Below, in pieces: positions 4,779 to 62,300 of a stretch of DNA of 64,000 nt. The notes beneath the pieces were generated by a model. It had not been told where the DNA came from. It saw nothing but the letters and a program-made list of their open reading frames with translations, and did no database searches. Location: sequence record MT968995.1; one strand, 5' to 3'. The translations under genes and the position numbers were made by a program. Source of the DNA: Escherichia phage vB_EcoM_WL-3. Within the stretch, counting starts at the first letter, position 1. Every line of letters starts with the position of its first letter.

Positions 4779-4806
4779 TTTATTCTCCTCAGTAGTAGAT
4801 AGGGTA

Positions 4807-4836
4807 ATAGTATCACTACCCTATCTAAAAGTAAAC
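4807..4836 (-). promoter_or_regulatory. T4 early-type sigma70 promoter
   Basis: Minus strand GTTTAC, ~17-18 nt, TGaTACTAT; -10 sits in loop of 9-bp inverted repeat gatagggta/taccctatc (4798-4825). Confidence 0.5.
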
Positions 4837-5404: not shown

Positions 5405-5435
5405 TTTTATTTTCCTAATTAATTTTGATGAGGTA

Positions 5436-5465
5436 ATAGTATCACTACCTCATCAGTATGTAAAC
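5436..5465 (-). promoter_or_regulatory. T4 early-type sigma70 promoter
   Basis: Minus strand cacaaagttGTTTACA, 17 nt, TGaTACTAT; 10-bp inverted repeat tgatgaggta/tacctcatca (5426-5455) brackets the -10. Confidence 0.5.
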
Positions 5466-14014: not shown

Positions 14015-17000
14015 CAGTAAAAGCACCTTCAGTCACTAGTCTCAGAATTTCCAAGTTATCCGCAAATCAGGTGCAAGTACGCTGGGATGACGTTGGTGCT
14101 AATTTCTACTATTTTGTAGAAATCGCTGAGACAAAAACAGACTCGGGGGAAAATCTCCCGAGTGATCAATATCGTTGGATTAATTTAGGATATACAGCAA
14201 ACAATAGTTTCTTTTTTGATGATGCTGATCCACTAACATCATACATCATTAGAGTAGCTACAGCTGCACAAGATTTTGAGCAATCTGATTGGGTTTATAC
14301 GGAAGAGTTTGAAACTTTTGCTACGAATGCTTACACATTTCAAAACATGATTGAAATGCAATTAGCCAATAAATTCATTCAGGAAAAATTTACTCTTAAC
14401 AATTCTAATTATGTCAATTTTAATAATGACACTATAATGGCTGCATTGATGAATGAATCGTTCCAATTCAGCCCATCATATGTTGATGTTTCATCAATCA
14501 GTAATTTTATTATTGGTGAAAATGAGTATCATGAAATACAAGGTTCCATTCAGCAAGTATGTAAGGATATTAACCGAGTTTATTTGATGGAATCAGAAGG
14601 GATTCTATATCTTTTTGAGCGTTATCAACCCGTGGTTAAAGTATCTAATGATAAAGGACAAACCTGGAAAGCTGTAAAACTCTTCAATGACCGCGTAGGA
14701 TATCCTTTATCTAAGACAGTATATTACCAATCTGCAAACACAACATACGTTCTAGGATACGACAAGATTTTCTATGGCCGCAAATCTACTGATGTTAGAT
14801 GGTCAGCTGATGATGTCAGATTTAGTTCGCAGGATATAACATTTGCTAAACTTGGCGACCAATTACATCTAGGATTTGATGTAGAAATTTTTGCCACTTA
14901 CGCGACTTTGCCAGCTAATGTATACCGCATTGCAGAAGCTATTACTTGCACCGATGATTACATTTACGTTGTCGCCAGAGACAAAGTTAGATACATAAAA
15001 ACGAGTAATGCACCTATAGATTCTGACCCATTATCTCCAACATATTCGGAAAGGCTATTTGAACCTGATACGATGACTATAACTGGAAATCCTAAAGCAG
15101 TATGTTATAAAATGGATTCTATTGGTGATAAAGTTTTCGCTCTTATTGTTGGAGAAGTTGAAACATTAAATGCTAATCCTAGAACATCAAAAATAATTGA
15201 TTCTGCCGATAAAGGAATATATGTTTTAAATCATGCCACGAAAACATGGAAAAGAGTTTTTGGCAACACTGAAGAAGAAAGAAGACGTATTCAACCTGGA
15301 TATGCGAATATGTCAACTGATGGTAAATTAGTTTCTCTGTCTTCGAGTAATTTTAAATTTTTAAGTGATAACATTGTTAATGACCCTGAAACTGCAGCGA
15401 AATATCAGTTAATCGGTGCTGTTAAATATGAATTTCCTCGTGAATGGCTAGCTGATAAGCATTATCATATGATGGCATTTATAGCAGATGAAAAATCTGA
15501 TTGGGAAACTTTTACGCCTCAACCGATGAAATATTATGCAGAACCATTCTTTAACTGGTCTAAAAAATCTAACACACGTTGTTGGATAAACAACTCTGAC
15601 AGAGCTGTAGTAGTTTATGCTGATTTAAAATACACTAAAGTTATAGAAAATATTCCGGAAACATCGCCAGATAGATTAGTTCATGAATACTGGGATGATG
15701 GTGATTGCACGATAGTAATGCCAAATGTTAAATTCACGGGATTTAAAAAATACGCATCTGGGATGCTTTTTTATAAGTCTTCTGGTGAAATAATTTCTTA
15801 CTATGATTTTAACTATCGAGTGAGAGACACGGTTGAAATAATTTGGAAGCCAACTGGAATATTTTTAAAAGCATTTTTACAAAACCAAGAGCGTGAAACT
15901 CCTTGGTCACCAGAAGAAGAGCATGGATTAGCTGACCCTGATTTAAGACCATTGATTGGCACAATGATGCCTGATTCTTATTTACTACAAGATTCGAATT
16001 TTGAGGCATTTTGCGAAGCATATATTCAATATCTTTCTGATGGATATGGAACTCAGTATAACAATTTACGAAATTTAATTCGTAACAAATATCCACGAGA
16101 AGAGCATGCATGGGAATATTTGTGGTCAGAGATATATAAAAGAAACATTTATTTAAATGCTGACAAACGTGATGCTGTTGCAAGATTTTTTGAATCACGT
16201 AGCTATGATTTTTATTCTACTAAAGGAATTGAAGCATCATACAAATTTCTTTTTAAAGTTCTTTATAATGAAGAAGTTGAAATTGAAATTGAATCTGGGG
16301 CTGGTACTGAATATGATATAATCATTCAATCTGATTCTTTGACTGAAGACTTAGTAGGACAAACGATTTATACAGCTACAGGAAGATGTAATGTTACTTA
16401 TATAGAAAGAAGCTATTCTAATGGTAAATTGCAATGGACTGTAACTATTCATAATCTTTTGGGAAGATTAATTGCCGGTCAAGAAGTTAAAGCAGAAAGA
16501 CTCCCTAGTTTCGAAGGCGAAATTATTCGCGGGGTTAAAGGAAAGGATTTGCTTCAAAATAATATAGACTATATTAATAGAAGTCGATCATATTATGTAA
16601 TGAAAATTAAATCCAATTTACCTTCTTCCCGCTGGAAATCTGACGTTATTCGTTTTGTTCATCCAGTAGGATTTGGATTTATAGCAATTACCCTTTTAAC
16701 AATGTTTATTAATGTTGGTTTAACTCTTAAACATACGGAGACTATAATTAATAAATACAAAAACTACAAGTGGGATTCTGGATTGCCTACTGAATATGCT
16801 GATAGAGTAGCTAAATTAACTCCAACTGGTGAAATTGAACATGATTCAGTAACAGGAGAAGCAATTTATGAACCTGGCCCAATGGCTGGTGTAAAATATC
16901 CTCTTCCTAATGACTATAATGCTGAAAATAATAATTCAATATTTCAAGGTCAATTGCCTTCTGAACGACGCAAGTTAATGAGTCCTCTATTTGACGCATC

Positions 17001-18106: not shown

Positions 18107-18110
18107 ATTA

Positions 18111-18135
18111 AGGGAGCCCATGGGCTCCCTTTTTC
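18111..18135 (+). terminator. rho-independent terminator after gene 8
   Basis: Perfect palindrome gggagcccatgggctccc followed by TTTTT. Confidence 0.7.
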
Positions 18136-23056: not shown

Positions 23057-24514
23057 ATGATTGAATTAAAAGAGTTACCTTTTGTTGATAGCGTTCCTGA
23101 CGAAGGTCAGGAACGTATTTCATGGATTAAAAATGGTGAAGAAATATTAGGAGCTAGTACTAAGTATGGAAATGATGGATCAATGAATAGACCAATTGTT
23201 TCCGTGTTTAAAAACGTCGAAGTTCTTGATGAAAATGTGGGAATTCTTAAAACTGCCATTGAAACATCGCAGAAAGATATTAAAACAATTCAAGGAGTTT
23301 TAGACGTATCAGGAGATATAGAAGCGCTATCGCAGATCAGTGTTAATAAAAATGACATATCAAATTTAAAGACACTTACTAATGAACACACTGATATATT
23401 AACTGGAACTAATAATACAGTTGACAAAATTATTGCTGATATAGGTCCATTTAATGATGAAGAAAACTCTGTTTATAGAACAATTAGAAATGATTTATTG
23501 TGGATTAAACAGGAATTAGGACAATATTCTGGTCAAGACATTAACGGTCTTCCTGTTGTTGGTAATGCTAGCACAGGAATGAAACACAGAATAATAACAA
23601 ATAGTACATTATTATCTTCACAAGGCATTCGTTTAAGCGAATTAGAAAATAAATTTACTGAATCTGACGTAGGATCATTGACTGTTGAAGTTGGTAAATT
23701 ACGTGATGAACTTGGTAATAAACCGGTAGATTTTGGACCAAATATTTATAATAGATTAAACACTATAGATGATAAACAAACTTTAATAAATTCTGATATA
23801 GCAGAAATTAAATCTTCTATTGGATACCCAGAAAATGTTTCTATAATAACAGAAATTAATAATAACAAAAGTAGCATTGAAGCTATTAATAATGAATTAA
23901 ATCAGAGCGAAGGTGTTAAACAACGCTTAACGGCTATTGAAACTTCTATCGGTTCAGATGATATTCCTTCTAGTATTAAAGGAAAAATTAAAAATCACAC
24001 AACTTCTATTGAGTCTTTAAACGGAATTGTTGGTGAAAACACTTCGTCTGGTTTAAGAGCGAATGTTTCGTGGTTAAATCAAATTGTTGGAACTGACTCC
24101 AGCGGAGGACAACCGTCTCCTTCTGGATCTCTATTAAATAAAGTTTCAGTGCTTGAAGGAGAAGTTTCAGTTTTAAACAATAATGTTCAAAATATACAAG
24201 TTGAAATAGGAAATAATAGAACAGGAATTAAAGGTCAAGTTATTGAACTTACTTCACTTATAAATGGAAATAATCCTGACGGATCAACTGTTGAAGAACG
24301 AGGATTAACTAATTCTGTAAAAACGAATGAAACCAACATTGCGGCAGTTACACATGAAGTAAATACAGCTAAAGACAATATATCCTCTTTACAGAGCAGC
24401 GTTCAAGCTCTACAAGAAGCAGGTTATATTCCTGAAGCTCCAAAAGATGGCCAAGCTTACGTTCGTAAAGACGGCGAATGGGTACTACTTTCTACCTTTT
24501 TATCACCAGCATAA
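23057..24514 (+). CDS. wac: fibritin (whisker) neck protein
   Basis: 485 aa coiled-coil with C-terminal [27 protein letters not shown] foldon. Confidence 0.9.
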
Positions 24515-24545
24515 CATGGGGCCGCAAGGCCCCAAAGGATTTTAA

Positions 24546-29457: not shown

Positions 29458-31437
29458 ATGACTTTATTATCTCCGGGCATTGAGCTCAAAGAAACTACGG
29501 TTCAAAGCACCGTGGTTAATAACTCTACTGGTACAGCAGCTTTGGCCGGTAAATTCCAGTGGGGTCCTGCTTTTCAGATTAAACAGGTTACAAACGAAGT
29601 AGATTTAGTTAATACTTTTGGTCAACCTACAGCTGAAACTGCTGACTATTTTATGTCTGCAATGAATTTCTTACAATATGGAAATGATTTGCGAGTTGTG
29701 CGCGCTGTCGATAGAGATACCGCTAAAAACTCATCTCCGATTGCTGGTAATATTGAATACACAATTTCTACCCCAGGTAGTAACTACGCGGTTGGAGATA
29801 AAATCACGGTCAAATATGTTTCAGAAGATGTTGAAACAGAAGGTAAAATTACCGAAGTAGATGCTGATGGAAAAATTAAGAAAATTAATATTCCTACTGC
29901 AAAAATTATTGCTAAAGCTAAAGAAGTTGGCGAATACCCAACATTAGGTTCTAACTGGACTGCAGAAATTTCTTCATCTTCTTCCGGTTTAGCTGCAGTA
30001 ATAACTCTTGGAAAAATTATTACTGATTCCGGTATTTTATTAGCTGAAATCGAGAGCGCTGAAACTGCTATGACAGCAGTTGATTTTCAGGCAAATCTTG
30101 AAAAATATGGAATTCCAGGAGTAGTAGCTCTCTATCCAGGCGAATTAGGCGATAAAATTGAAATTGAAATCGTATCTAAAGCTGACTATGCGAAAGGCGC
30201 TTCTGCATTACTGCCAATTTATCCAGGTGGTGGTACTCGTGCATCTACTGCCAAGGCAGTATTTGGATATGGGCCGCAGACTGACTCACAGTACGCTATT
30301 ATAGTTCGTCGTAATGATGCTATTGTTCAAAGTATTGTTCTTTCAACTAAGCGTGGTGAAAAAGATATTTACGATAGTAACATCTATATTGATGACTTTT
30401 TCGCAAAAGGTGGTTCAGAATATATTTTCGCAACTGCGCAAAACTGGCCAGAAGGCTTCTCTGGAATTTTAACTCTGTCTGGTGGATTATCATCAAATGC
30501 TGAAGTAACAGCAGGAGATTTGATGGAAGCTTGGGACTTCTTTGCTGACCGCGAATCTGTTGACGTTCAGTTGTTTATTGCGGGTTCTTGTGCCGGTGAA
30601 TCTCTTGAAACAGCATCTACTGTCCAAAAACATGTTGTTTCAATTGGTGATGCTCGTCAAGATTGCTTAGTATTGTGCTCACCTCCGCGTGAAACTGTAG
30701 TTGGAATTCCTGTAACTCGTGCAGTAGATAATTTAGTTAACTGGAGAACTGCAGCAGGTTCATACACTGATAATAACTTTAATATCAGTTCAACCTACGC
30801 AGCAATTGATGGTAACTACAAATATCAGTATGACAAATATAATGATGTGAATCGTTGGGTTCCATTAGCAGCTGATATTGCTGGTTTATGCGCAAGAACT
30901 GATAACGTATCTCAGACTTGGATGTCTCCAGCTGGTTATAATCGTGGCCAGATTCTTAACGTTATTAAACTTGCTATTGAAACTCGCCAAGCTCAGCGCG
31001 ACCGTTTATACCAAGAAGCTATTAATCCAGTAACTGGTACAGGTGGCGATGGTTACGTATTGTATGGTGATAAAACAGCTACTTCTGTTCCTTCTCCATT
31101 TGATCGTATTAACGTTCGTCGTCTGTTTAATATGTTGAAAACGAATATCGGACGTAGTTCAAAATATCGTTTGTTCGAATTAAACAACGCGTTTACTCGT
31201 TCATCATTCCGCACAGAAACTGCCCAATACTTACAGGGAATTAAAGCTCTCGGTGGAATTTATGAATATCGTGTAGTTTGCGATACAACAAATAACACTC
31301 CGTCAGTAATTGATAGAAATGAGTTTGTTGCAACATTCTACATTCAACCGGCTCGTAGTATAAATTATATCCAACTTAATTTCGTCGCAACTGCTACTGG
31401 TGCAGATTTCGATGAGTTAACTGGTCTTGCAGGTTAA
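29458..31437 (+). CDS. 18: gp18 contractile tail sheath
   Basis: 659 aa as in T4. Confidence 0.95.
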   Translation: MTLLSPGIELKETTVQSTVVNNSTGTAALAGKFQWGPAFQIKQVTNEVDLVNTFGQPTAETADYFMSAMNFLQYGNDLRVVRAVDRDTAKNSSPIAGNIEYTISTPGSNYAVGDKITVKYVSEDVETEGKITEVDADGKIKKINIPTAKIIAKAKEVGEYPTLGSNWTAEISSSSSGLAAVITLGKIITDSGILLAEIESAETAMTAVDFQANLEKYGIPGVVALYPGELGDKIEIEIVSKADYAKGASALLPIYPGGGTRASTAKAVFGYGPQTDSQYAIIVRRNDAIVQSIVLSTKRGEKDIYDSNIYIDDFFAKGGSEYIFATAQNWPEGFSGILTLSGGLSSNAEVTAGDLMEAWDFFADRESVDVQLFIAGSCAGESLETASTVQKHVVSIGDARQDCLVLCSPPRETVVGIPVTRAVDNLVNWRTAAGSYTDNNFNISSTYAAIDGNYKYQYDKYNDVNRWVPLAADIAGLCARTDNVSQTWMSPAGYNRGQILNVIKLAIETRQAQRDRLYQEAINPVTGTGGDGYVLYGDKTATSVPSPFDRINVRRLFNMLKTNIGRSSKYRLFELNNAFTRSSFRTETAQYLQGIKALGGIYEYRVVCDTTNNTPSVIDRNEFVATFYIQPARSINYIQLNFVATATGADFDELTGLAG

Positions 31438-31443
31438 TTGATT

Positions 31444-31459
31444 GTGGGGCTTCGGCCCC
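31444..31459 (+). terminator. UUCG-tetraloop hairpin after gene 18 (attenuator/stability element)
   Basis: ggggc-ttcg-gcccc directly after gp18 stop; no strong U tract. Confidence 0.4.
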
Positions 31460-31476
31460 TATTCTCGAGGAAACAA

Positions 31477-32082
31477 GTGATTATTTCTAAGTTTGTTACA
31501 ATAAAACCAAGAAATCATTCAAAAATGTGGTCGACAATTCTGGGATATAAAGTATCATATCATGATACAATATCTGTTCCAATAGAATTAATGCCAAAGA
31601 ATAGTAATAAAATAGTTGACGCTAAATGTGATTTGTGTGGTATTAAATTTAGTAGAAGCATTCAGCTTTTAAATAGAACACCCACACATGCATGTAGAAA
31701 ATGTAGCATTAAACAAGTTGCTATTAAAAATTCGGAAGTTCAATCTGGAATAAGCAGACCATGGCAAAGAGGCGATAAACATCCTCGATGGACTGGTAAA
31801 AGAAAAGAGTTTGCATTATATGCTAGTAGAGTTCATTCTATAACTAAGTCAGCTAAAATAAGAAAAATTTGGTCAAAATGGCCGAATGCTGATAAAATAG
31901 GAGTGTGCGGCGTAGAAGGTGCTTACCAACTTGATCACAAGGTATCTATCAAATATGGATTTGATAATTTAATTCCGCCGGAAATTATAGCAAGCGTAAA
32001 AAATTTAGAAATAATCACTTGGGAATCTAACCGAGAAAAGTCAAAAAGAAATAGCGTAGATCTTTGGGATTTACTAGAATGA
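31477..32082 (+). CDS. free-standing HNH endonuclease between genes 18 and 19
   Basis: C-terminal block QLDHKVSIKYGFDNLIPPEIIASVKNLEIITWESNREKSKRN (D-H...N...N); track start is TTG inside the hairpin; GTG at 31477 has GAGG 6 nt upstream. Confidence 0.65.
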   Translation: MIISKFVTIKPRNHSKMWSTILGYKVSYHDTISVPIELMPKNSNKIVDAKCDLCGIKFSRSIQLLNRTPTHACRKCSIKQVAIKNSEVQSGISRPWQRGDKHPRWTGKRKEFALYASRVHSITKSAKIRKIWSKWPNADKIGVCGVEGAYQLDHKVSIKYGFDNLIPPEIIASVKNLEIITWESNREKSKRNSVDLWDLLE

Positions 32083-32107
32083 TTCTAAAGGCCTGTTTCG
32101 GCAGGCC

Positions 32108-32115
32108 ATATAAAT
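32108..32115 (+). promoter_or_regulatory. T4 late promoter TATAAATA (distal, gene 19)
   Basis: Exact TATAAATA following hairpin ggcctg-n6-caggcc. Confidence 0.45.
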
Positions 32116-32166
32116 ACACTATATCCTTAATTCTTTAATTCTATATGCCCTAGGTTAAACATAGGG

Positions 32167-32174
32167 ATATAAAT
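32167..32174 (+). promoter_or_regulatory. T4 late promoter TATAAATA (proximal, gene 19)
   Basis: Exact TATAAATA 16 nt upstream of gp19 ATG. Confidence 0.6.
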
Positions 32175-32189
32175 ACTACAGAGGCTAAT

Positions 32190-32681
32190 ATGTTTGTAGA
32201 TGATGTAACACGAGCGTTTGAATCTGGTGATTTTGCTCGACCTAACTTATTCCAAGTAGAAATTTCTTATCTTGGACAAAATTTTACGTTTCAATGTAAA
32301 GCCACTGCTTTACCAGCTGGTATTGTAGAAAAAATTCCAGTCGGATTTATGAACCGTAAAATTAACGTAGCAGGCGATCGTACATTCGATGACTGGACTA
32401 TTACAGTAATGAATGATGAGGCGCATGATGCACGCCAGAAGTTTGTTGACTGGCAAAGCATTGCTGCTGGGCAAGGAAACGAAATTACTGGTGGAAAACC
32501 AGCAGAGTATAAAAAGAGTGCTATTGTACGCCAATATGCTCGTGACGCTAAAACTGTAACAAAAGAAGTCGAAATTAAAGGCCTGTGGCCTACTAACGTG
32601 GGTGAACTTCAGTTAGATTGGGATTCAAACAATGAAATCCAAACCTTTGAAGTAACTCTCGCTCTCGATTATTGGGAATAA
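32190..32681 (+). CDS. 19: gp19 tail tube protein
   Basis: 163 aa as in T4. Confidence 0.95.
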   Translation: MFVDDVTRAFESGDFARPNLFQVEISYLGQNFTFQCKATALPAGIVEKIPVGFMNRKINVAGDRTFDDWTITVMNDEAHDARQKFVDWQSIAAGQGNEITGGKPAEYKKSAIVRQYARDAKTVTKEVEIKGLWPTNVGELQLDWDSNNEIQTFEVTLALDYWE

Positions 32682-32713
32682 AATGAATGGGGAGAAATCC
32701 CCATCCTGCTTAA

Positions 32714-34338
<1,625 letters not shown>

Positions 34339-38068: not shown

Positions 38069-38083
38069 TCTTTGACGATTTAA

Positions 38084-38102
38084 GGGACCTTCGGGTCCCT
38101 TT
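38084..38102 (+). terminator. rho-independent terminator after gene 23
   Basis: gggacc-ttcg-ggtccc followed by TTT. Confidence 0.6.
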
Positions 38103-39439: not shown

Positions 39440-39465
39440 AAAGGGACCGAAAGGTCCCTTTTTAT
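39440..39465. terminator. bidirectional terminator between convergent gene 24 and rnlB
   Basis: gggacc-gaaa-ggtccc flanked by A run upstream and T run downstream. Confidence 0.7.
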
Positions 39466-41024: not shown

Positions 41025-41048
41025 AGAAAGGGGCCGAAGCCCCTTATG
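41025..41048 (-). terminator. UUCG-tetraloop hairpin after hoc
   Basis: Minus strand ggggc-uucg-gcccc followed by T-rich tract. Confidence 0.5.
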
Positions 41049-42920: not shown

Positions 42921-44432
42921 ATGACTGACATTAAAGTACATTTTTATGATTTTAGTCACGTGAGAATTGATTGTGAAGAAAGTACATTTCATGAACTCCG
43001 TGATTTCTTTAGCTTTGAAGCTGATGGGTATCGTTTTAATCCGAAATACAAATATGGTCACTGGGATGGACGAATCCGTCTTTTAGATTATAATCGCCTT
43101 CTTCCGTTCGGCTTAGTCGGGCAAATTAAAAAGTTCTGTGATAACTTTGGCTATAAAGCCTGGATTGACCCACAAATTAACGAAAAAGAAGAATTATCAA
43201 GAAAAGATTTTGATGAATGGCTTTCTAAATTAGAAATCTATTCAGGAAATAAAAGAATTGAACCGCACTGGTATCAAAAAGATGCAGTGTTCGAAGGATT
43301 AGTTAATCGTCGTAGAATTCTTAATCTTCCAACATCCGCAGGTAAATCTTTAATTCAAGCTTTGCTTGCACGTTATTATTTGGAAAATTATGAAGGTAAA
43401 ATTCTTATCATTGTTCCAACAACTGCTCTGACAACTCAGATGGCTGATGACTTTGTTGACTATCGTTTATTCAGTCATGCAATGATAAAGAAAATTGGTG
43501 GTGGAGCATCAAAAGATGATAAATATAAAAATGATGCACCAGTCGTTGTTGGTACATGGCAAACTGTAGTAAAACAACCAAAAGAATGGTTCTCACAGTT
43601 TGGAATGATGATGAATGATGAATGCCATCTTGCCACAGGAAAAAGTATTTCATCTATCATATCAGGTTTAAATAACTGCATGTTCAAATTTGGTCTATCA
43701 GGTTCATTACGTGATGGCAAAGCTAATATCATGCAGTATGTTGGAATGTTTGGTGAAATATTTAAGCCAGTAACGACTTCTAAATTAATGGAAGATGGAC
43801 AAGTAACTGAGTTAAAAATTAATAGTATTTTTCTTCGCTATCCTGATGAGTTCACTACTAAATTAAAGGGAAAAACTTACCAAGAAGAAATAAAAATTAT
43901 TACTGGGCTCAGTAAAAGAAATAAATGGATCGCTAAATTAGCTATTAAGCTTGCGCAAAAAGATGAAAACGCTTTTGTCATGTTTAAGCATGTATCACAT
44001 GGTAAAGCTATTTTCGATTTAATTAAAAATGAATACGATAAAGTTTATTACGTATCAGGAGAAGTTGATACTGAAACGCGCAATGTAATGAAAACCTTAG
44101 CTGAAAACGGTAAAGGAATAATTATAGTAGCTAGTTATGGTGTATTTTCTACTGGTATTTCAGTTAAAAATCTGCATCACGTTGTTTTAGCGCACGGCGT
44201 TAAATCTAAAATTATTGTATTGCAAACAATAGGTCGTGTATTACGTAAGCATGGTTCTAAAACAATCGCAACGGTCTGGGACCTCATTGATGATTGCGGT
44301 GTTAAGCCAAAATCTGCTAATACGAAAAAGAAATACGTTCATTTGAACTATCTTTTAAAACACGGCATTGATCGTATTCAGCGCTACGCAGATGAAAAAT
44401 TTAATTACGTAATGAAAACAGTTAATTTATAA
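42921..44432 (+). CDS. uvsW: UvsW recombination/repair helicase
   Basis: 503 aa; Walker A PTSAGKS, DECH box. Confidence 0.9.
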   Translation: MTDIKVHFYDFSHVRIDCEESTFHELRDFFSFEADGYRFNPKYKYGHWDGRIRLLDYNRLLPFGLVGQIKKFCDNFGYKAWIDPQINEKEELSRKDFDEWLSKLEIYSGNKRIEPHWYQKDAVFEGLVNRRRILNLPTSAGKSLIQALLARYYLENYEGKILIIVPTTALTTQMADDFVDYRLFSHAMIKKIGGGASKDDKYKNDAPVVVGTWQTVVKQPKEWFSQFGMMMNDECHLATGKSISSIISGLNNCMFKFGLSGSLRDGKANIMQYVGMFGEIFKPVTTSKLMEDGQVTELKINSIFLRYPDEFTTKLKGKTYQEEIKIITGLSKRNKWIAKLAIKLAQKDENAFVMFKHVSHGKAIFDLIKNEYDKVYYVSGEVDTETRNVMKTLAENGKGIIIVASYGVFSTGISVKNLHHVVLAHGVKSKIIVLQTIGRVLRKHGSKTIATVWDLIDDCGVKPKSANTKKKYVHLNYLLKHGIDRIQRYADEKFNYVMKTVNL

Positions 44433-44457
44433 GGGCTTCGGCCCTTTGGAGAAAAAG

Positions 44458-44688
44458 ATGTTACTAGAATTTAAACAATTTCTTTATGAAGCTTCTATTG
44501 ATGAATTCATGGGTAAAATTGCCTCTTGCCAAACATTAGAAGGTCTAGAAGAACTTGAAGCTTATTATAAGAAAAGAGTTAAAGAAACTGAATTAAAAGA
44601 TACTGATGACATCTCAGTTAGAGATGCTTTGGCAGGAAAAAGAGCTGAATTAGAAGATTCAGACGATGAAGTAGAAGAAAGCTTTTAA
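44458..44688 (+). CDS. uvsW.1: UvsW.1 helicase accessory protein
   Basis: Track start is TTG; ATG at 44458 with GGAG upstream gives 76 aa; separated from uvsW by stop and gggcttcggccc hairpin. Confidence 0.7.
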   Translation: MLLEFKQFLYEASIDEFMGKIASCQTLEGLEELEAYYKKRVKETELKDTDDISVRDALAGKRAELEDSDDEVEESF

Positions 44689-52959: not shown

Positions 52960-52990
52960 AATGGGGACCGAAAGGTCCCCATGTTTTTAT
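52960..52990 (+). terminator. rho-independent terminator after gene 54
   Basis: ggggacc-gaaa-ggtcccc followed by aTGTTTTTaTTT. Confidence 0.7.
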
Positions 52991-53307: not shown

Positions 53308-53338
53308 TATTATAACACAATACGAGGGACTTGTAAAC
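53308..53338 (-). promoter_or_regulatory. sigma70-like (early-type) promoter for the 96-aa ORF
   Basis: Minus strand TTTACA, about 17-18 nt, TATAAT, about 30 nt upstream of ATG at 53277. Confidence 0.4.
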
Positions 53339-55395
53339 TACATCTTGAACTTTTTAGACATTCCGTTGATGTTAACCAAAGAAGCTAAGATTTGAGAAAC
53401 TTCGTTTTCCTCTTCTTTTGATTCTTCTACAAGGAATTGATTAAACCCAGCCATTGGACGAACTTCACCAGTTTCCATCAGATGATCGCCATCATATACC
53501 GATTCTTCTAATTGTTCAGAAGGAGGAACGATTGTACCTTCGATTAAATACTTGTTATAAGCAGTTTCTTTCATCATGTACGTGCTCACTTTATTAATCT
53601 TCAGCAAAATTCCACGTGGTAAAATAACTTCAGCTTCTGACGTAAATCCTGATAAATGACCCGGAACGATAACTTTGATTCGCTCAGCTCCTTTAATTAC
53701 CATACCCACGCTAGTTTCAGCATCTTCATTCGCATAAGCAGAATGACTGCCCATATGCATCAAATCTTCTGCGTCAATTGAACCTTCTCCTTCACCAGAA
53801 AATACTGCACTGGAATCATCTAGAGCCATATAGTTTTTACCATACTCACCGAAGATATTTGGTTTAAGCGATGTGGATACGAAGTTCTTAAAATAGAACA
53901 TTTTATTTTCAATATTATGACGTAAAGTTTTAAAGGTAACTTCTTGGCCACGGTAAAGCGTAGTTCCTGGAGGAAGAACTGATCCTTTGGCAAAAGCAGA
54001 ATCCATCGTCTCGATGTGTTTAATAGCTCGTTCCATATATTCTTCACGAGTAGAATCCGGTTTACCTAAAAGGAACGAGTTCATTTCAACATATGAATCT
54101 GCGCAATAATCTTCAATTACATCAGACTCAGCCCGAGTTAATCCTTTTGGGGGTACTTCAGTACTTGCATATTCATACGCTTGAGAAGCAGACTCATTAA
54201 TCAATTTATAAATGCCATTCATGACAAATTGAATAATAGCTACCTTTTCATCTGGCGTGGCTTTAGAACCTTTAACTAAATCATTGACAATTTTCTTAAT
54301 AACATCAAAGCTATTAGAAATATTAATGTCAGCAAGATCGCTTAAAATTTTATCAGTTTTATAATCAAAAAATTCTTTATTCTTTAAATATTCTTGAGAA
54401 CCTTGATGTGTTATATCGCTCTGCAGTCTGATAGACGGATCACGTAAACGTGCATGGGCCAATGCAATATGATTTCGGAAGCTTTTTAGTTCATAATCAC
54501 TAGATTTAAAACGAGAAGCACTCCTCATACCACCGATAGCTCCTTTGCCGAAGTTTGAACCAATCTGAATAACGCCAGAGTTCATTGGTCCTTCTGCTTT
54601 ATATACCGGAACTTTAGATTCAAACTCTTGATATTTCTTAGCAGCGAAACTATCGCCCTGAAGTGAAGCATCGACAGTAGAGTATTGAGCTTGTGCTGCT
54701 AATCGACGACTAATTTTAGTTTTCTGAATAACAGCTTGATCCGTGCGCTTATCATTTTCTAAAGCAATAGAAGCGGCAACAGCAACAGCTTTAGGAACAG
54801 CATTACCTGTTTTAACGTCTACATAAACATCACCAACCTTTGATTCAACTTTTGTGAATAACTCAGTTGAAATAGGAGGTACACCTGGAATGTCTTCTAA
54901 ATTGGCATTTTTACGGTAAACCATAATATATGCATACTTTTTATCGTAATCCCAGATTTCCTTTAAAAGAACATATCGACCTGCTCCTTTAGTACGTACT
55001 AAACGGTCAGCAATAACTTGAATTTGTCGAGCTGCGCCATTTGTTTTACTCTTTAGTACGCGGAACAGGCATGCGTCAATTTTATACTGTTTCATTGTTT
55101 GAAGAGCAGTATCAAAAACCGCATTAATAACACCAATTGGATTTCCACCCAAGTTTTTAAGTTTAACTAATGATAGTTTCTCATTGACACCTATCATTAC
55201 GATATGCATCATTTTATCGCCTGGCTTAACGTTTTTATTTGTATCACCGCCAGAGGTGTATGTGCAAAATCTAAATCCAGGAAGCACGCTTTCTTCACCG
55301 GCTTGAATAGCAAAAATTTGAGGTATTTTATGCTTAGGATTTAAGTTAACAACCGGCGCCGAAGCGCCGTCAAATAATTCTGTAATAAGTTCCAT
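53338..55395 (-). CDS. Alt-family mono-ADP-ribosyltransferase, paralog A
   Basis: 685 aa; C-terminal ART triad YRG / FVSTSL / SEAEVILPRG; N-terminus MELITELFD shared with adjacent paralog. Confidence 0.8.
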   Translation of the reverse strand: MELITELFDGASAPVVNLNPKHKIPQIFAIQAGEESVLPGFRFCTYTSGGDTNKNVKPGDKMMHIVMIGVNEKLSLVKLKNLGGNPIGVINAVFDTALQTMKQYKIDACLFRVLKSKTNGAARQIQVIADRLVRTKGAGRYVLLKEIWDYDKKYAYIMVYRKNANLEDIPGVPPISTELFTKVESKVGDVYVDVKTGNAVPKAVAVAASIALENDKRTDQAVIQKTKISRRLAAQAQYSTVDASLQGDSFAAKKYQEFESKVPVYKAEGPMNSGVIQIGSNFGKGAIGGMRSASRFKSSDYELKSFRNHIALAHARLRDPSIRLQSDITHQGSQEYLKNKEFFDYKTDKILSDLADINISNSFDVIKKIVNDLVKGSKATPDEKVAIIQFVMNGIYKLINESASQAYEYASTEVPPKGLTRAESDVIEDYCADSYVEMNSFLLGKPDSTREEYMERAIKHIETMDSAFAKGSVLPPGTTLYRGQEVTFKTLRHNIENKMFYFKNFVSTSLKPNIFGEYGKNYMALDDSSAVFSGEGEGSIDAEDLMHMGSHSAYANEDAETSVGMVIKGAERIKVIVPGHLSGFTSEAEVILPRGILLKINKVSTYMMKETAYNKYLIEGTIVPPSEQLEESVYDGDHLMETGEVRPMAGFNQFLVEESKEEENEVSQILASLVNINGMSKKFKM

Positions 55396-55398
55396 GAT

Positions 55399-57495
55399 TT
55401 ATCCTTGAACGAACTTGTAAGGCATGTTTGTAATATCTATGCAAGACGCAATAATTCCGAGAGATGATTCTGCTTTCTGTTTAACATTTGATGAAACAAA
55501 TGATGCAAAGTCAACTCTGTCTTCTATTTCAATATCACCTGTCATTGCAACTACTTCACCAGTTTCCATTAAATGGTCTCCATCATAAATTACTGATTCG
55601 GTGAGTTCTTCTGTAGTCATAACTTCAGATTGAATGAGTTTTGTATTATTAGATGTTGTTCCGTCATTATTAGAAGCATCAGTTATTTTATTAACTTTGA
55701 CCATCAATCCGCGCGGTAGAATAACTTCAGCTTCTGTTGCTATTCCGAGACTTCCTGGATATACAACATTAACTTTATGAGCTCCATCAATTGCCCATCC
55801 TATTTGAACTTTAACGTATTCAGGATTTTCTTTATACGCTCTTATTTCGTTTGGATTAATAGTTATTCCTTCTTCATTTTTATCAACTGTCAATTCATTA
55901 CGAGCTTCTGGTTCTAAAAGACCAATACCAGCATGTGTAATTCCAAAACGTCCAAAAATGATAGGAGTTAAAGAAGTAGATACAAAATTTCTGAAATAGA
56001 ACACTTTATTTTTAACTAGTGCTTCGTATATAGGAGCAGTCATACTTTGAGCACGATAAACTGTAATGCCTTCTGGTATACGGTCACCATTTTCAAAAGC
56101 TGAATCTAAGTTATTTATAGCAGATTCAATTTCTTTTTCACTCATTACATCATATCGTTCTGGATTGTAACGACCCAAAAGAAGATTATTGATGTCAGTA
56201 TATCCTGAACCACAATACTCTCTAATGCCGCGCTTTTGTGATGGAGTATATTTAGAACCATCACGGGCAATAGTAATATCAATCATTGGACCTGCACCAA
56301 TTCCAGAAAAACTATAAATCATTCGTTTGAGGAATTTAGTTTTTGCTGCGTTCCAGGAATTTTTAGTTATTTCTTCCCAGACTTCATCTGGCTGTCCTTT
56401 ACGGGTTTTATTATGTTTATCAAGCCAAGTATCTTTATATTCTTCAAAGAATTTATTAACAGCTGCTGCGTATTTCTCTAAACATTTTATTGAAGTAGTT
56501 GGTTCATTTTTAATCGCATTAAGAATTACATCTTTAATTTTTTCAGAAACTTCATTAACCTCACTTTTTGAAAAGAATTTATAGTCATAGTGAAGTTCAT
56601 CTGCGGTTCCTTCGGCAATGATTTTTGCTGCCTTAGTTTTAGAAGCTAATGAATTAATTCCAAGCTTCATTTCTTCTGCTTCGGGAATTAAAGGAGCTGT
56701 AGCAGGTTTATTGAAATTAGCTGCAGTAGATTCATACTTCTGGAATAATTCGCTTTCAAATCTAGAAGATTCTAATGATTGACTTTGCGCAATTGCTCTA
56801 CGGGAAATTTTAACTTTAACAATAACAGCTTGGTCAGAACGTTTATCATTTTCTTGTGCAATAGATGCTGCAATTGCCTCATTTTTAGTTACTTGAGCTC
56901 CAGTATCTTTATTGATATAAACATCGCCGACTTTCGATTCAACTTTAGTAAAGAGCTCGGTACTAATTTCCGGAACTCCTGGAATGTCTTCTAGTGATAC
57001 ATTTTTGCGATGTATAAGAATATATGCATACTTTTTATCGTAATCCCAGAGTTCCTTAAGAAGGACGTATCTGCCACCTGAACGACTACGAATAAGTCTA
57101 TCAGCAATAACTTGAATTTGTCGAGCTTGACCAGCAGTTTTAGACTTAAGAATACGGAGCATACAGGCATCAATTTTATACTGACGCATCGTCTGCATTG
57201 CAACAGTAAAAACTGAATTGATATAATTAATTGGGCTTGGACCGAGACCTTTTAATTTAGCAATTGAACCTTTAGCAGTTAATGTAAAAGGAACAATATG
57301 CATCATTTTATCGCCCATTTTTAAATCGCGATTAGTATCACCTCCAGATGTATAGGTACATAAACGAAAGCCTGGTTGTTCAATTGCGTCATCGACATGA
57401 ACTGAAAAAATTTGTGGTATTTTCTTCTTTGGATTTAAGTTTGTAATCGGAAGAGTAGTATCTTCGTCAAATAATTCTGTAATGAGTTCCATCAT
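55399..57495 (-). CDS. Alt-family mono-ADP-ribosyltransferase, paralog B
   Basis: 698 aa; C-terminal YRAQ / FVSTSLTP / TEAEVILPRG; N-terminal ~230 aa closely parallel paralog A. Confidence 0.8.
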   Translation of the reverse strand: MMELITELFDEDTTLPITNLNPKKKIPQIFSVHVDDAIEQPGFRLCTYTSGGDTNRDLKMGDKMMHIVPFTLTAKGSIAKLKGLGPSPINYINSVFTVAMQTMRQYKIDACMLRILKSKTAGQARQIQVIADRLIRSRSGGRYVLLKELWDYDKKYAYILIHRKNVSLEDIPGVPEISTELFTKVESKVGDVYINKDTGAQVTKNEAIAASIAQENDKRSDQAVIVKVKISRRAIAQSQSLESSRFESELFQKYESTAANFNKPATAPLIPEAEEMKLGINSLASKTKAAKIIAEGTADELHYDYKFFSKSEVNEVSEKIKDVILNAIKNEPTTSIKCLEKYAAAVNKFFEEYKDTWLDKHNKTRKGQPDEVWEEITKNSWNAAKTKFLKRMIYSFSGIGAGPMIDITIARDGSKYTPSQKRGIREYCGSGYTDINNLLLGRYNPERYDVMSEKEIESAINNLDSAFENGDRIPEGITVYRAQSMTAPIYEALVKNKVFYFRNFVSTSLTPIIFGRFGITHAGIGLLEPEARNELTVDKNEEGITINPNEIRAYKENPEYVKVQIGWAIDGAHKVNVVYPGSLGIATEAEVILPRGLMVKVNKITDASNNDGTTSNNTKLIQSEVMTTEELTESVIYDGDHLMETGEVVAMTGDIEIEDRVDFASFVSSNVKQKAESSLGIIASCIDITNMPYKFVQG

Positions 57496-57523: not shown

Positions 57524-57530
57524 AAATTAA

Positions 57531-57544
57531 AGGCCCGAAGGCCT
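57531..57544 (-). terminator. UUCG-tetraloop hairpin between small ORF and alt promoter
   Basis: Minus strand aggcc-uucg-ggccu followed by UUUAAUUUU. Confidence 0.45.
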
Positions 57545-57733
57545 TTAATAATCTAATGGTAAGAGAGTACGGTATATTTCAAACTTTGGCCCTTTTTCAT
57601 AGGCATCAAATGTTTCTGTAAATTTATTATAAGCATATGCATCTACAAATTCGAGAACGATTTGTGATACAGAAGTAGAAACATCTCCACCTTCTTTTTG
57701 AGCCACGACAATTGTTTCTAAGTAAGCTTTCAT
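57545..57733 (-). CDS. hypothetical protein between gene 30 and alt
   Basis: 62-aa ORF; start overlaps gene 30 stop (ATGA). Confidence 0.5.
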   Translation of the reverse strand: MKAYLETIVVAQKEGGDVSTSVSQIVLEFVDAYAYNKFTETFDAYEKGPKFEIYRTLLPLDY

Positions 57734-60952: not shown

Positions 60953-61146
60953 ACTAATTCCTTTAATCCGTAAATAGGAGATAATTCATCGCCCATACGA
61001 AGGTCTTCATTTCCATCTACCCAGGAAACAATATAAGCCTCTTTTATTTGAATACCACTCCATTTAAATGGAGGTAGAACCTTAGAAATTAATCCAGGTA
61101 TACCAACTCCCTTTAATTCAACAGTTTGACCCAAAAAGAATTTCAT
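60949..61146 (-). CDS. hypothetical protein (position of T4 30.5)
   Basis: 65-aa ORF. Confidence 0.45.
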   Translation of the reverse strand: MKFFLGQTVELKGVGIPGLISKVLPPFKWSGIQIKEAYIVSWVDGNEDLRMGDELSPIYGLKELV

Positions 61147-61433
61147 TAGAACCTCATCTGAAAACCATGCGATTTAACATTACCACCACCAATGTCAGAA
61201 ATATTAATTTCACGCGCAATTGAAGGGTCAATGTCAATTTCACGATTGAGTTTAATGATTGCTAGAGTATCACGTCCATTTACAGTACGGAACTCTAAAG
61301 GACATACTACATTAACGTAGTTTTTAATCGATTCACTGGTAGGCTGCAAATGAGCAGGAATGTCTTTAGGCGCCTTAGAGAAAACCACTTCACAGAAATT
61401 TTTACGGGTATCAAAATAAGTAGTCATAAACAT
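61146..61433 (-). CDS. hypothetical protein (position of T4 30.6)
   Basis: 95-aa ORF. Confidence 0.5.
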   Translation of the reverse strand: MFMTTYFDTRKNFCEVVFSKAPKDIPAHLQPTSESIKNYVNVVCPLEFRTVNGRDTLAIIKLNREIDIDPSIAREINISDIGGGNVKSHGFQMRF

Positions 61434-61474
61434 AGTATTTTCCTCAGTAAGGGGCCGAAGCCCCTCATTTTATT

Positions 61475-61852
61475 TTAAATATCAAATTCGTTAAGAACTA
61501 CATCAAAGATCGCTTCAAGATGCTCAGGTTTAGCTCTGTTACTCAGAATATGACGAATCCAAGTTTTAACCAGAAGCTTACGATTGACGCCATTCCAGCA
61601 AGGATGAGTCCCTAAATCACGTTGACGGAAATCATCATCTAATGCGATTTTAAAAGAAGAACCTTCTTTCGTGATTGAAACCGTGATGCCATTTTCAAAT
61701 CGCATATAAACGTAGTTAGGAGTCATATACTGTTCAATTTCGCATACTGATCCATTTTGATGTTTCCAAAGACAGATAGTATCAATAGAACCTGCAATAC
61801 CGTTAGAAACATATTTACGTTCAAAGTTGATGTAGTTCATTTTATTCTCCAA
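61475..61852 (-). CDS. hypothetical protein (position of T4 30.7)
   Basis: 125-aa ORF; preceded by ggggc-uucg-gcccc hairpin at 61443-61458. Confidence 0.5.
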   Translation of the reverse strand: MENKMNYINFERKYVSNGIAGSIDTICLWKHQNGSVCEIEQYMTPNYVYMRFENGITVSITKEGSSFKIALDDDFRQRDLGTHPCWNGVNRKLLVKTWIRHILSNRAKPEHLEAIFDVVLNEFDI

Positions 61853-62240: not shown

Positions 62241-62270
62241 TTTATTCTCCTTTGTTTGTGTAAGATAATA

Positions 62271-62300
62271 CTATCACAAAGGAACCATACTGTAAACAAC
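62271..62300 (-). promoter_or_regulatory. T4 early-type sigma70 promoter
   Basis: Minus strand cacaaagttGTTTACA, 17 nt, TGaTAGTAT; same cassette as at 5105-5134 and 5436-5465. Confidence 0.5.

Follow-up and report, generated by a model that had tools for sequence, protein, structure and literature searches.

The DNA examined here, called the window, is a 64,000-nt stretch of Escherichia phage vB_EcoM_WL-3 (sequence record MT968995.1), a T4-like phage (Tequatrovirus) showing 97-99% identity to AV119, G4507, and T6. An exact 12-mer, GGGCTTCGGCCC, was found four times in the window, at 31447 (+), 41031 (-), 44433 (+), and 61452 (-), each time as the core of a hairpin at a gene junction. The first hairpin is GGGGC-UUCG-GCCCC, with the 14-mer core GGGGCTTCGGCCCC at 31446-31459 (+). 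It begins 8 nt past the stop codon of gp18, has a predicted dG of -9.6 kcal/mol, and ends in a U-poor tail, UAUUCUCG. Downstream of it lie a Shine-Dalgarno sequence (GAGG, 31467-31470) and the GTG start codon of an optional ORF at 31477. This copy is located within a segment of about 645 bp that is absent from T4, and it is identical in G4507 and RB3. The optional ORF has 239 records among GenBank phages; no relatives of it were found in the viral contig scan (IMG/VR). The second hairpin, AAGGGGC-UUCG-GCCCCUU at 41028-41045 (-), lies 4 nt past the hoc stop codon and has a U-rich tail, UUUCUUCAUUUU, resembling an intrinsic terminator. It is identical in T4, and the G4507 record annotates a terminator there. 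The third, AAGGGC-UUCG-GCCCUU at 44431-44446 (+), is U-poor and holds the UAA stop codon of uvsW inside its 5' arm; a Shine-Dalgarno sequence (GGAG, 44448-44451) and the ATG of uvsW.1 (44458) follow. The fourth, UGAGGGGC-UUCG-GCCCCUUA at 61448-61467 (-), is also U-poor and is followed by a Shine-Dalgarno sequence (GAGG, 61445-61442) and the ATG of 30.6 at 61433.

A first-pass annotation of this DNA had placed the same C(UUCG)G hairpin after gp18, after hoc, and at uvsW, and the exact GGGCTTCGGCCC matches, with UUCG in the mRNA sense, confirm this. The uvsW copy had been described as one pair shorter, and it does have one G-C pair fewer. The fourth hairpin exists as claimed, but its position is 61448-61467 and not 61443. 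It had been said to precede a 30.7-like ORF, which holds only in plus-strand coordinates; in the mRNA sense it comes after 30.7 (61475-61852) and before 30.6 (61146-61433).

Similar hairpins occur at many other junctions of the window. Between genes 23 and 24, the hairpin AAGGGACC-UUCG-GGUCCCUU (GGGACC-UUCG-GGUCCC; 38082-38101, +) has a U-rich tail and is a predicted intrinsic terminator. Its folding z-score is -3.8, the late promoter of gene 24, TATAAATA, follows it, and G4507 carries a terminator annotation at this site. Between the convergent genes 24 (+) and rnlB (-), AAAGGGACC-GAAA-GGUCCCUUU (GGGACC-GAAA-GGUCCC; 39440-39461) has U tracts on both strands, is annotated in G4507, and is predicted to be a bidirectional terminator. 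The same prediction is made for AUGGGGACC-GAAA-GGUCCCCAU (GGGGACC-GAAA-GGUCCCC; 52961-52982, z = -4.7), which lies between the convergent genes 54 (+) and alt.-3 (-). The gggacc hairpins reported beside genes 23, 24, and 54 are present, but they do not form the separate family as which they had been listed. Gene 18 and gene 19 are separated by a native hairpin, GGCCUGU-UUCG-GCAGGCC (32090-32107, +), with a U.G closing pair; it directly adjoins a late promoter, TATAAATA, at 32109-32116, and a second TATAAATA lies at 32168-32175. After gene 19 comes AUGGGGA-GAAA-UCCCCAU (32687-32704, +), a U-poor hairpin which is annotated as a terminator in G4507 and precedes the gene 20 late promoter. The hairpin AUUAAAGGCC-UUCG-GGCCUUUAAU (57526-57549, -) overlaps the alt.1 stop codon and is identical in T4; it is followed by UUUAUAAAUA, which contains a late-promoter motif, ahead of an alt paralogue. 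After 30.9, GAGGACUCC-UUCG-GGAGUCCUU with the tail UUUUAUUUU (62326-62347, -) is predicted to be a canonical intrinsic terminator and is likewise identical in T4. Beyond it lies a sigma-70-like site (62296-62268, TTTACA-17-TAGTAT), which is a partial match only. The stem of this hairpin recurs after soc in T4.

Some hairpins differ in loop or setting. After wac, UGGGGCC-GCAA-GGCCCCA (24517-24534, +) is U-poor and adjacent to a Shine-Dalgarno sequence, AAGGA, which is followed by the gene 13 ATG. After gene 8, AAGGGAGCC-CAUG-GGCUCCCUU (18110-18131, +) is followed by a U tract and TATAAATA and has a terminator annotation in G4507. The hairpin AGCCCCGACC-GAAA-GGUUGGGGCU (1817-1840, -; dG -19.8 kcal/mol), followed by UUUU, lies about 680 nt downstream of the nearest tRNA gene of the cluster. 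One C(UUCG)G palindrome, CGGCGC-UUCG-GCGCCG (55354-55369, -), lies within coding sequence, at codons 9-14 of the downstream alt paralogue, and is found in T4 alt.-1 too. Except for this one, the listed junction hairpins start between 3 nt before and 13 nt after a stop codon. A search of the entire window for Rfam families, with gathering thresholds, returned nine tRNAs and no family at the hairpins.

Chance does not account for the recurrence of the core. In 100 dinucleotide-preserving shuffles, GGGCTTCGGCCC had no matches, so that the expectation is 0 and the observed number 4. UUCG makes up 8 of the 23 junction tetraloops, against a frequency of 0.003 expected from base composition (P ~7e-15). 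The C-G closing pair is present at 31446, 41028, 44431, 61448, 38082, 57526, 62326, and 55354, and only the 32090 hairpin has U.G. The predicted dG of the C(UUCG)G hairpins ranges from -8.8 to -14.9 kcal/mol (nearest-neighbour), and all the core and GGGACC-type hairpins are present in the minimum free energy fold of the surrounding 64-74 nt. Folding z-scores were weak for 31446 (-0.7) and 44431 (-1.1) in 64-66-nt contexts; short hairpins are poorly judged by this score, and motif statistics and comparative data were relied on instead.

The orientation of the loop is strict. At the junctions of the window, UUCG outnumbers CGAA by 8 to 0 in the mRNA sense (two-sided p = 0.008), the eight being the four core copies and the hairpins at 38082, 57526, 62326, and 32090. 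The orientation flips at every change of gene direction, even within 3.4 kb (41028 on the minus strand versus 44431 on the plus strand). In the 90 kb of T4 examined, all 13 UUCG hairpins are in the mRNA sense, and seven of them lie outside the region of this window. The recurring GGGGC-UUCG-GCCCC hairpins are genuine and act on the RNA level; the junction hairpins work on the transcript and not on the DNA.

The hairpins were compared among relatives. The hoc 3' hairpin was found at all 20 loci, where Hoc identity ranges from 34 to 92%. It has 97% paired cells and changes on both sides in five of seven pairs, and its covariation score was matched by none of 500 shuffles. Since the loop-anchored alignments were built from hairpins detected at each locus, such pairing percentages are partly circular, while covariation and positional constancy are not. 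At the 30.7/30.6 junction, the hairpin is present at 14 of 14 loci and in T4, always without a U tract; its stems (GGGGC, GGAGGC, or GGGAGC) show compensatory G-C to A-U changes, and its loop is UUCG, UUUG, UUCA, or GAAA, including swaps from UUCG to GAAA. The 23/24 hairpin is conserved with covariation, and at the 23/24, 19/20, 18/19, and 54 junctions a hairpin is kept across relatives while its sequence has changed. After gene 54, it lies 0-5 nt past the gp54 stop codon in 23 of 24 relatives and 48 nt past it in L067. Upstream of gene 19, a hairpin adjoining (T/C)ATAAATA is found in relatives down to 56% gp19 identity. At the convergent 39440 site, the loop is inverted or altered among close relatives (TTTC, AAAA). 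The uvsW hairpin is restricted to close T-even relatives; in distant ones, the stop codon and the Shine-Dalgarno sequence abut with no hairpin. Since it is not conserved beyond the close T-evens, the uvsW hairpin may be dispensable.

The hairpins fall into two groups according to their tails, with a cut-off of about five or more U in the 8 nt after the G-C core. Those at 41028, 38082, 39440, 52961, 62326, and 18110 are U-rich, and those at 31446, 44431, 61448, 24517, 32090, and 32687 are U-poor. That several copies have no U tract had been noticed before and is correct: 31446, 44431, and 61448 have 4, 3, and 3 U, respectively, in the 8 nt past the G-C core, short of what is required of an intrinsic terminator. 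A terminator scan in the mRNA sense called 38082, 39440, 41028, 52961, and 62326 and skipped 31446, 44431, and 61448. The authors of the G4507 record placed terminators at the U-rich sites and after gene 19, and none at the identical gp18 hairpin. Among distinct relatives, at least five U were found in 8 of 8 at the 23/24 junction, 10 of 16 at hoc, 1 of 9 upstream of gene 19, and 0 of 9 at 30.7/30.6. In the U-poor hairpins that adjoin a Shine-Dalgarno sequence, 1-7 nt separate the stem from that sequence, and the AUG follows the stem at 11-17 nt.

Are these hairpins copies of one repeat? The flanks of the four core copies share 77 identities out of 276, and random pairs share 74.3 +/- 7.9. Across relatives, the stems GGGGC, GGGACC, GGAGCC, GGGCC, and GGGAC interchange at the hoc junction, and the loops UUCG, GAAA, and GCAA interchange at a single junction. 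Because the flanks have no homology and both stems and loops interchange at one junction, the apparent family is a convergence on a few very stable hairpins, and the earlier division into a sequence family and a sister family does not stand. A descent in two lineages, GGGGC and GGGACC, was rejected, since both occur at one orthologous junction in different relatives. The stem AAGGGACC/GGTCCCTT was found in at least 120 viral contigs, very diverse in length and sample but not checked for relatedness, and 48% of these contigs have a UUCG or CGAA loop. A dispersed repeat or mobile element was rejected on the random level of flank identity and on the occurrence of this stem with varied loops in those contigs.

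It is quite likely that the junction hairpins are independent, extra-stable C(UUCG)G (less often GNRA) tetraloop hairpins that punctuate T4-type mRNAs, the U-rich ones as terminators and the U-poor ones as attenuators or barriers, and that they arose by convergence. The near-identity of the four copies would result from selection for a short and very stable hairpin, which leaves a handful of possible sequences; the selected design would combine a 5' arm rich in G, a 3' arm rich in C, and closure by a C-G pair. The hairpins after genes 23, 24, 54, hoc, 30.9, and 8, with their U-rich tails, most likely terminate transcription as intrinsic (rho-independent) terminators. Two of them, between convergent genes (39440 and 52961), may be read as terminators on either strand, and several have the late promoter TATAAATA, at which transcription would restart, about 5-35 nt further downstream. 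The hairpins after gp18, at the uvsW stop codon, between 30.7 and 30.6, and after wac have 2-4 U, and the next gene in the same orientation has its Shine-Dalgarno sequence 1-7 nt downstream of them. Most RNA polymerases would probably read through them. Judging from their sequence and position, they most likely serve as leaky attenuators that also hold up 3'-to-5' exonucleases and so stabilise the cistron upstream, and might thereby set the relative expression of neighbouring genes. Such roles besides termination are reasonable because the lack of a U tract is conserved at 30.7/30.6. With 2-4 U past a very stable stem, the U-poor hairpins could also be weak terminators. A bolder proposal, which I make tentatively and regard as doubtful, is that the U-poor hairpins adjacent to Shine-Dalgarno sequences are a distinct, non-terminating intercistronic class, kept from acquiring U tracts and tuning cistron ratios by exonuclease block or translation uncoupling, and that loops flip by template switching, which is tolerated only at convergent junctions. 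In the literature searchable here, neither this U-poor class nor the loop flipping appears to have been described systematically for T4-like phages, and no relevant report of loop inversion in phage terminators was found in the literature searched.

Could all the junction hairpins, the U-poor ones included, be intrinsic terminators of graded strength, with no role in stability or processing? This is unlikely on balance but has to be taken seriously. The hairpins all lie 0-13 nt past a stop codon, even the U-poor ones have 2-4 U immediately past a very stable stem, one of them (after gene 19) is annotated as a terminator in G4507, and PeSL stem-loops cut reporter expression like a strong terminator (PMC2839356). 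However, the consensus scan passed over three of the four core copies, and at 30.7/30.6 none of the nine distinct relatives has gained a U tract, while the Shine-Dalgarno sequence is still 1-7 nt away. Since 30.6 and the genes downstream of it need read-through, this pattern suggests selection against efficient termination. The closeness of hairpin and Shine-Dalgarno sequence (1-7 nt at 31446, 44431, 61448, and 24517, and conserved at 30.7/30.6) may instead point to translational elements that insulate or expose the ribosome-binding site or couple termination to reinitiation. The uvsW stop codon lies within the stem, so that a terminating ribosome must melt it, and cis-acting RNA structures of T4 are known to repress (e, soc, 49, I-TevI) or enhance (25, 38) initiation (PMC3014915). 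A translational role is nevertheless rather improbable: distant relatives couple uvsW and uvsW.1 without a hairpin, and the same design is used at sites with no downstream Shine-Dalgarno sequence (hoc, 23). Sequestering and split-site models of the ribosome-binding site were ruled out by geometry, since both the Shine-Dalgarno sequence and the AUG lie 3' of the stem, outside the helix, and the hairpin is not between them.

Two further readings place the function or the origin of the hairpins in the DNA. Common descent as a dispersed repeat, in which PeSL-like mobile cassettes would have been spread by recombination and would bring about gene shuffling at the DNA level, would explain why cores of 12-14 nt are identical at four sites and why the 31446 copy borders, on the 5' side, an optional ORF absent from T4. 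PolyG/polyC PeSLs are known in T4-like phages, among them PST, which is closely related to the window (PMC2839356, PMC4122927), and TTTACA-17-TAGTAT follows the 62326 hairpin. I consider this descent very improbable. The homology is confined to the stem, while in PeSLs it extends over about 100 bp. Late genes (18, hoc, uvsW) surround three of the four copies, and the fourth lies directly beside the Shine-Dalgarno sequence of 30.6. On reading the scan output as a whole rather than site by site, no early promoter was seen downstream of the four copies, and no promoter-like site directly downstream of 31446, 41028, or 44431. A promoter-like site matching at 9 of 12 positions (61494-61467) adjoins 61448 upstream and overlaps the extended stem by one base, the end of its -10 hexamer; promoter-like sites in the window are no commoner than in shuffles. 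The switching of stems at one junction among relatives, the occurrence of the same stem in viral contigs of very different lengths and samples (their relatedness not checked), and the strict mRNA-sense orientation, which favours an RNA function, also speak against descent from a repeat. As perfect inverted repeats, the hairpins might also serve replication, recombination, or packaging as cruciforms or single-strand hairpins, and the loop inversions among close relatives show the palindromes to be active as DNA, in recombination or replication. A DNA-level signal is hardly credible, however: it is in RNA that C(UUCG)G has its special stability, the mRNA-sense loop is UUCG without exception and flips with gene direction, and the positions follow stop codons and Shine-Dalgarno sequences.

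The hairpins are a rediscovery. GGGGC-UUCG-GCCCC belongs to the extra-stable C(UUCG)G hairpins known from T4 gene junctions since 1988. The original description is that of Tuerk et al. (1988, PNAS 85:1364), as cited in PMC8948821 and PMC2811024. According to the quotation of that work in PMC8948821, T4 intergenic regions are especially rich in CUUCGG hairpins, which stop reverse transcriptase and have varied functions, mRNA stabilisation among them. As far as this quotation goes, a role in stability or processing is not a new idea. The UUCG tetraloop is also frequent in T4 intergenic stem-loops and terminators (PMC1702504). Together with the work of Tuerk et al., the published work on PeSLs already accounts for the feature. 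For specialists the present result carries little weight, since the T4 CUUCGG hairpins are a textbook case of extra-stable RNA tetraloops, for which varied roles, above all termination and the stabilisation of mRNA, have been put forward for decades. No usable T4 3'-end maps (Term-seq, transcriptome) were found in the literature searched. There is some practical use for annotation: probable terminators are told from hairpins skipped by standard terminator predictors, the hairpin family is shown to be a convergence and has no status as a repeat element, and the gp18 copy is located at the edge of an optional ORF cassette. In addition, uvsW and uvsW.1 are wrongly joined in the T4 reference record, precisely where a C(UUCG)G hairpin lies, and checking for the hairpin explains why.

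Among known systems, the cis-acting translational structures of T4 are likewise short hairpins beside ribosome-binding sites in mRNA, and optional endonuclease-like ORFs are often under such control (PMC3014915). They differ in that the Shine-Dalgarno sequence and the AUG in the window are neither held in the helix nor split by it. The promoter-early stem-loops (PeSLs; Arbiol et al. 2010, PMC2839356; Comeau et al. 2014, PMC4122927) resemble the present hairpins as polyG/polyC stem-loops at junctions followed by a Shine-Dalgarno sequence and a start codon, in their association with optional ORFs, and in a terminator or attenuator function, which is predicted here and was seen for T4-like PeSLs in reporter assays (PMC2839356). 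In contrast to PeSLs, the window hairpins share homology only in the stem and not over about 100 bp, blocks of late genes rather than hyperplastic regions hold most copies, and no sigma-70-like early promoter was seen beside the four core copies in the scan output read as a whole. PeSL membership of the four core copies was rejected on the absent flank homology; the 62326 hairpin alone looks PeSL-like. Intrinsic terminators with UUCG or GNRA tetraloops share the G-C-rich stem, the stable tetraloop, and the U tract, and comparable features carry terminator annotation in G4507. At the convergent junctions (39440 and 52961), an upstream A tract would make the terminator bidirectional, as in known bidirectional terminators, while 31446, 44431, 61448, 24517, 32090, and 32687 differ from intrinsic terminators in having no U tract. 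The closest likeness is to the C(UUCG)G hairpins of T4, which have the same UUCG loop, C-G closing pair, short G-C stems, intergenic position, and mRNA sense. The hoc, alt.1, and 30.9 copies are the same base for base in T4, and AAGGGGC-UUCG-GCCCCUU also occurs after T4 regA. The T4 RefSeq record lacks or mis-records two of the window copies, the one after gp18 (in the optional ORF cassette) and the one at uvsW, and the 30.7/30.6 loop is UUCG in this phage and UUCA in T4. There is no essential difference between the T4 C(UUCG)G hairpins and those of the window.

In the window, the core hairpin GGGGCTTCGGCCCC was found at 31446-31459 (+), 8 nt past the stop codon of gp18. Its 12-mer GGGCTTCGGCCC occurs exactly four times, at 31447 (+), 41031 (-), 44433 (+), and 61452 (-), and not once in 100 dinucleotide-preserving shuffles, which confirms the claim of the first-pass annotation that a C(UUCG)G hairpin recurs at gene junctions. 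The fourth copy exists as claimed, but it lies at 61448-61467 instead of 61443 and, in mRNA sense, after 30.7 and before 30.6. The GGGACC/GGTCCC hairpins reported beside genes 23, 24, and 54 were located at 38082-38101 (23/24 junction, loop UUCG), 39440-39461 (24/rnlB, loop GAAA), and 52961-52982 (54/alt.-3, loop GAAA). Hairpins of both kinds all form when their contexts of 64-74 nt are folded to minimum free energy, and the predicted dG of the isolated hairpins ranges from -8.8 to -17.2 kcal/mol.

At 30000-33000, the window shares 97-99% identity with Tequatrovirus genomes (for example, AV119, G4507, and T6), and its ORFs are collinear with those of T4 (the tRNA cluster, genes 5-24, rnlB, hoc, inh, uvsW, uvsY, 25-29, 48, 54, alt, 30, and 30.1-30.9). 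Transcription switches direction six times within the window, which makes a strand test of the hairpins possible. All tetraloop hairpins on the mRNA-sense strand whose stems have five or more pairs, three or more of them G-C, were catalogued. Among the 23 junction hairpins in the catalogue, eight have a UUCG loop, three or four have GAAA, and none has CGAA, the complement of UUCG; composition predicts a UUCG frequency of 0.003 (P about 7e-15). The sense-to-antisense ratio of UUCG at the window junctions is 8:0 (two-sided p = 0.008), and its orientation tracks the local gene direction (31446 +, 41028 -, 44431 +, and 61448 -). In the 90 kb of T4 examined, 13/13 UUCG hairpins read in mRNA sense, and seven of these come from a region outside this window. 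Thus, the target of selection is the RNA, not a DNA cruciform, and the proposal that the hairpins serve as RNA-level punctuation at gene junctions stands.

Hairpins were also noticed at other sites. Within the downstream alt paralogue, codons 9-14 contain a perfect C(UUCG)G palindrome, CGGCGCUUCGGCGCCG (55354-55369, -), which T4 alt.-1 has as well; its role may be that of a translational pause site or attenuator, or it may be a relic. At 53338-57495 (-), the window has two full-length alt-like genes in tandem (685 and 698 aa), while T4 has a single alt and the alt.-1/alt.-2 fragments of a duplication. Two long hairpins of 13-14 bp, at 4796-4827 and 5426-5455 (-), make up a second repeated pair in the region that immediately precedes the tRNA cluster in mRNA sense. 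Both have an AUAC loop, their arms are similar (UAGAUAGGGUAGUG... and UGAUGAGGUAGUG...), and a Shine-Dalgarno-like sequence, GAGGAG or AGGAA, comes after each.

At several junctions, the structure is conserved among relatives. In a loop-anchored alignment of the hoc 3′ hairpin, 97% of the cells are paired, a value that is partly circular since the pair-count alignments were anchored on hairpins detected in this analysis; positional constancy and double changes are free of this circularity, and both sides have changed in five of the seven pairs. The covariation score was reached by none of 500 shuffles, and shifting the partners collapses the pairing. The 30.7/30.6 hairpin is kept in 14/14 loci and in T4, with GGGGC, GGAGGC, or GGGAGC stems, compensatory G-C to A-U changes, and UUCG, UUUG, UUCA (T4), or GAAA loops. 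Stems at 23/24 are GGGACC, GGAGCC, GGGAGCC, GGGAGAC, or GGGAACC, with UUCG or GCAA loops. The hairpins on either side of gene 19 and that at the gene 54 3′ end are retained, with turnover of their sequences, in relatives with protein identity as low as 56-60%.

Between some near-identical relatives (loci L047-L049, L052, L062-L069, L080/L081, L100, and L103-L106), the stem is unchanged and the loop exactly inverted (GAAA/TTTC, GCAA/TTGC, ATA/TAT, or ATAC/GTAT), at the convergent terminators 24/rnlB (39440-39461) and 54/alt.-3 (52961-52982) and in the hoc 3′ hairpin. This looks like template-switch or palindrome-mediated flipping. No UUCG loop at a co-directional junction was flipped among the relatives compared.

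Do the copies form a family by descent, as the word used in the first-pass annotation would imply? The four core copies were tried as a repeat family, and their flanks outside the stem are identical at 77/276 positions against 74.3 +/- 7.9 for random pairs. At the hoc junction, a hairpin is present in 20/20 relatives (Hoc identity 34-92%), 2-7 nt past the stop codon or, in two, overlapping it. Its stem is GGGGC, GGGACC, GGAGCC, GGGAGCC, GGGCC, GGGAC, or GGACC, and its loop is UUCG in 14/20 and UUGC, GCAA, or CUAG in the remainder; thus, the GGGGC and GGGACC types substitute for each other at one site. With flanks at the random level and interchangeable stems, common descent is rejected. The copies share a design, in which a run of G forms the 5′ arm, a run of C forms the 3′ arm, and a C-G pair closes the loop, and their likeness within the genome is best read as convergence on very few optimal short hairpins. 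At least 120 viral contigs, differing widely in length and sample and counted regardless of relatedness, contain the stem AAGGGACC/GGTCCCTT; the loop is UUCG/CGAA in 48% of the matches listed (at least 120), stable GNRA-type loops being next commonest. The stem, loop, and U run of the 30.9 terminator recur after soc in T4 (15303-15324 of the locus compared), an unlinked site, so that identical hairpins stand at unrelated junctions.

These very stable, covarying hairpins, in RNA sense and fixed position at cistron boundaries, fall into U-rich and U-poor classes. When U was counted in the first 8 nt beyond the G-C core of distinct orthologues, at least five were found in 8/8 relatives at 23/24, 10/16 at the hoc 3′ end, 3/8 at 19/20, 1/9 upstream of gene 19, and 0/9 at 30.7/30.6. 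A consensus terminator scan called 38082, 39440 and 52961 (both strands each), 41028, and 62326 (after 30.9), and left 31446, 44431, and 61448 uncalled in mRNA sense; the earlier remark that several hairpins lack a U tract therefore holds, which makes a role besides termination plausible for them. The depositors of G4507 annotated terminators at the equivalents of 18110 (after gene 8), 32687 (after gene 19), 38082, 39440, and 41028, and left the identical gp18 hairpin unmarked. The late-promoter motif TATAAATA commonly follows U-rich hairpins (e.g., 38082, 18110, and 57526 at the alt.1 stop), and it directly adjoins the native 18/19 hairpin at 32090, a widely conserved arrangement. After U-poor hairpins, the Shine-Dalgarno sequence of the next gene lies 1-7 nt further on: 31446, GAGG (31467), GTG (31477); 44431, GGAG (44448), ATG (44458); 61448, GAGG (61445), ATG (61433); and 24517 (after wac), AAGGA, ATG. 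At 62268-62347 (-), the 30.9 terminator AGGACUCC-UUCG-GGAGUCCU and its U run precede a TTTACA-17-TAGTAT site, an arrangement resembling the promoter-early stem-loop (PeSL) cassettes.

The U-rich hairpins would be intrinsic terminators, bidirectional at convergent junctions, and the late promoter downstream may restart transcription. The U-poor hairpins may be leaky attenuators and 3′-exonuclease barriers, which would stabilise the upstream cistron and lower downstream expression while retaining read-through. At 30.7/30.6, the lasting lack of a U tract and the fixed Shine-Dalgarno spacing are consistent with selection for read-through. Translational insulation or coupling is also a possible role of the U-poor class.

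The gp18 hairpin at 31446 lies at the 5′ edge of a segment of about 645 bp absent from T4, an optional insertion (31438-32089) between the gp18 stop codon and the native 18/19 hairpin. It encodes a 201-aa ORF at 31477-32082 (+), assigned to phrog_5104 with a weak homing-endonuclease N-terminal match. The T4 gene-18 hairpin, GGCCUGU-UUCG-GCAGGCC followed by TATAAATA, is kept downstream of the ORF (32090-32116). Homologues (31-99% identity) were found in 239 phage records, between gp18 and gp19 in 7/7 inspected from several genera. A stable hairpin precedes the ORF in five of six divergent records inspected; the gp18-ORF spacer of Entb_43 has a hairpin plus TATAAATA arrangement instead. RB3 has an identical gp18 hairpin and leader, while its ORF is only about 50% identical (about 50% over 31494-31880, with flanks about 100% identical). 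In KMB20 (L087), Roth67 (L088), and Melin (L089), which belong to other genera, a promoter-like motif overlaps the hairpin upstream of the ORF (TGATACAAT in the former two, TATAAATA within the 5′ arm in Melin). The 5′ arm of the hairpin would be missing from transcripts initiated there, an arrangement resembling the one known for gene e and I-TevI in T4.

The hairpin at 44431 contains the uvsW stop codon and is confined to close T-evens; in distant relatives, the stop codon and the Shine-Dalgarno sequence abut and the hairpin is absent. In the T4 RefSeq record (NC_000866, about 24185-24200), bases are missing from its 5′ arm (ATAAGCTTCGGCCC versus ATAAGGGCTTCGGCCC at 44425-44460 of the window), so that uvsW and uvsW.1 are joined there into a single CDS of 587 aa. 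In the window and in every close relative, the hairpin is complete and uvsW (503 aa) and uvsW.1 (PF11637) are two genes, and the T4 record itself flags sequence discrepancies at uvsW/uvsW.1. The gap is likely a sequencing compression at the stable hairpin.

In summary, the first reading of the hairpins is partly supported, and they are already known: they match the CUUCGG hairpins of Tuerk et al. 1988. According to PMC8948821, these have the form (X)2-8 CUUCGG (Y)2-8, are mostly intergenic, and are particularly numerous in T4; they cause reverse transcriptase to stop and serve various functions, mRNA stabilisation among them. The UUCG tetraloop is frequent in T4 intergenic stem-loops and terminators (RegB study, PMC1702504). 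The hoc, alt.1, and 30.9 hairpins of T4 are identical to those of the window base for base. PeSLs are recurrent polyG/polyC stem-loops with terminator/attenuator activity, documented at junctions between genes in T4-like phages, among them PST, which is closely related to the window (PMC2839356, PMC4122927); their polyG/polyC design is the same as that of the window hairpins.
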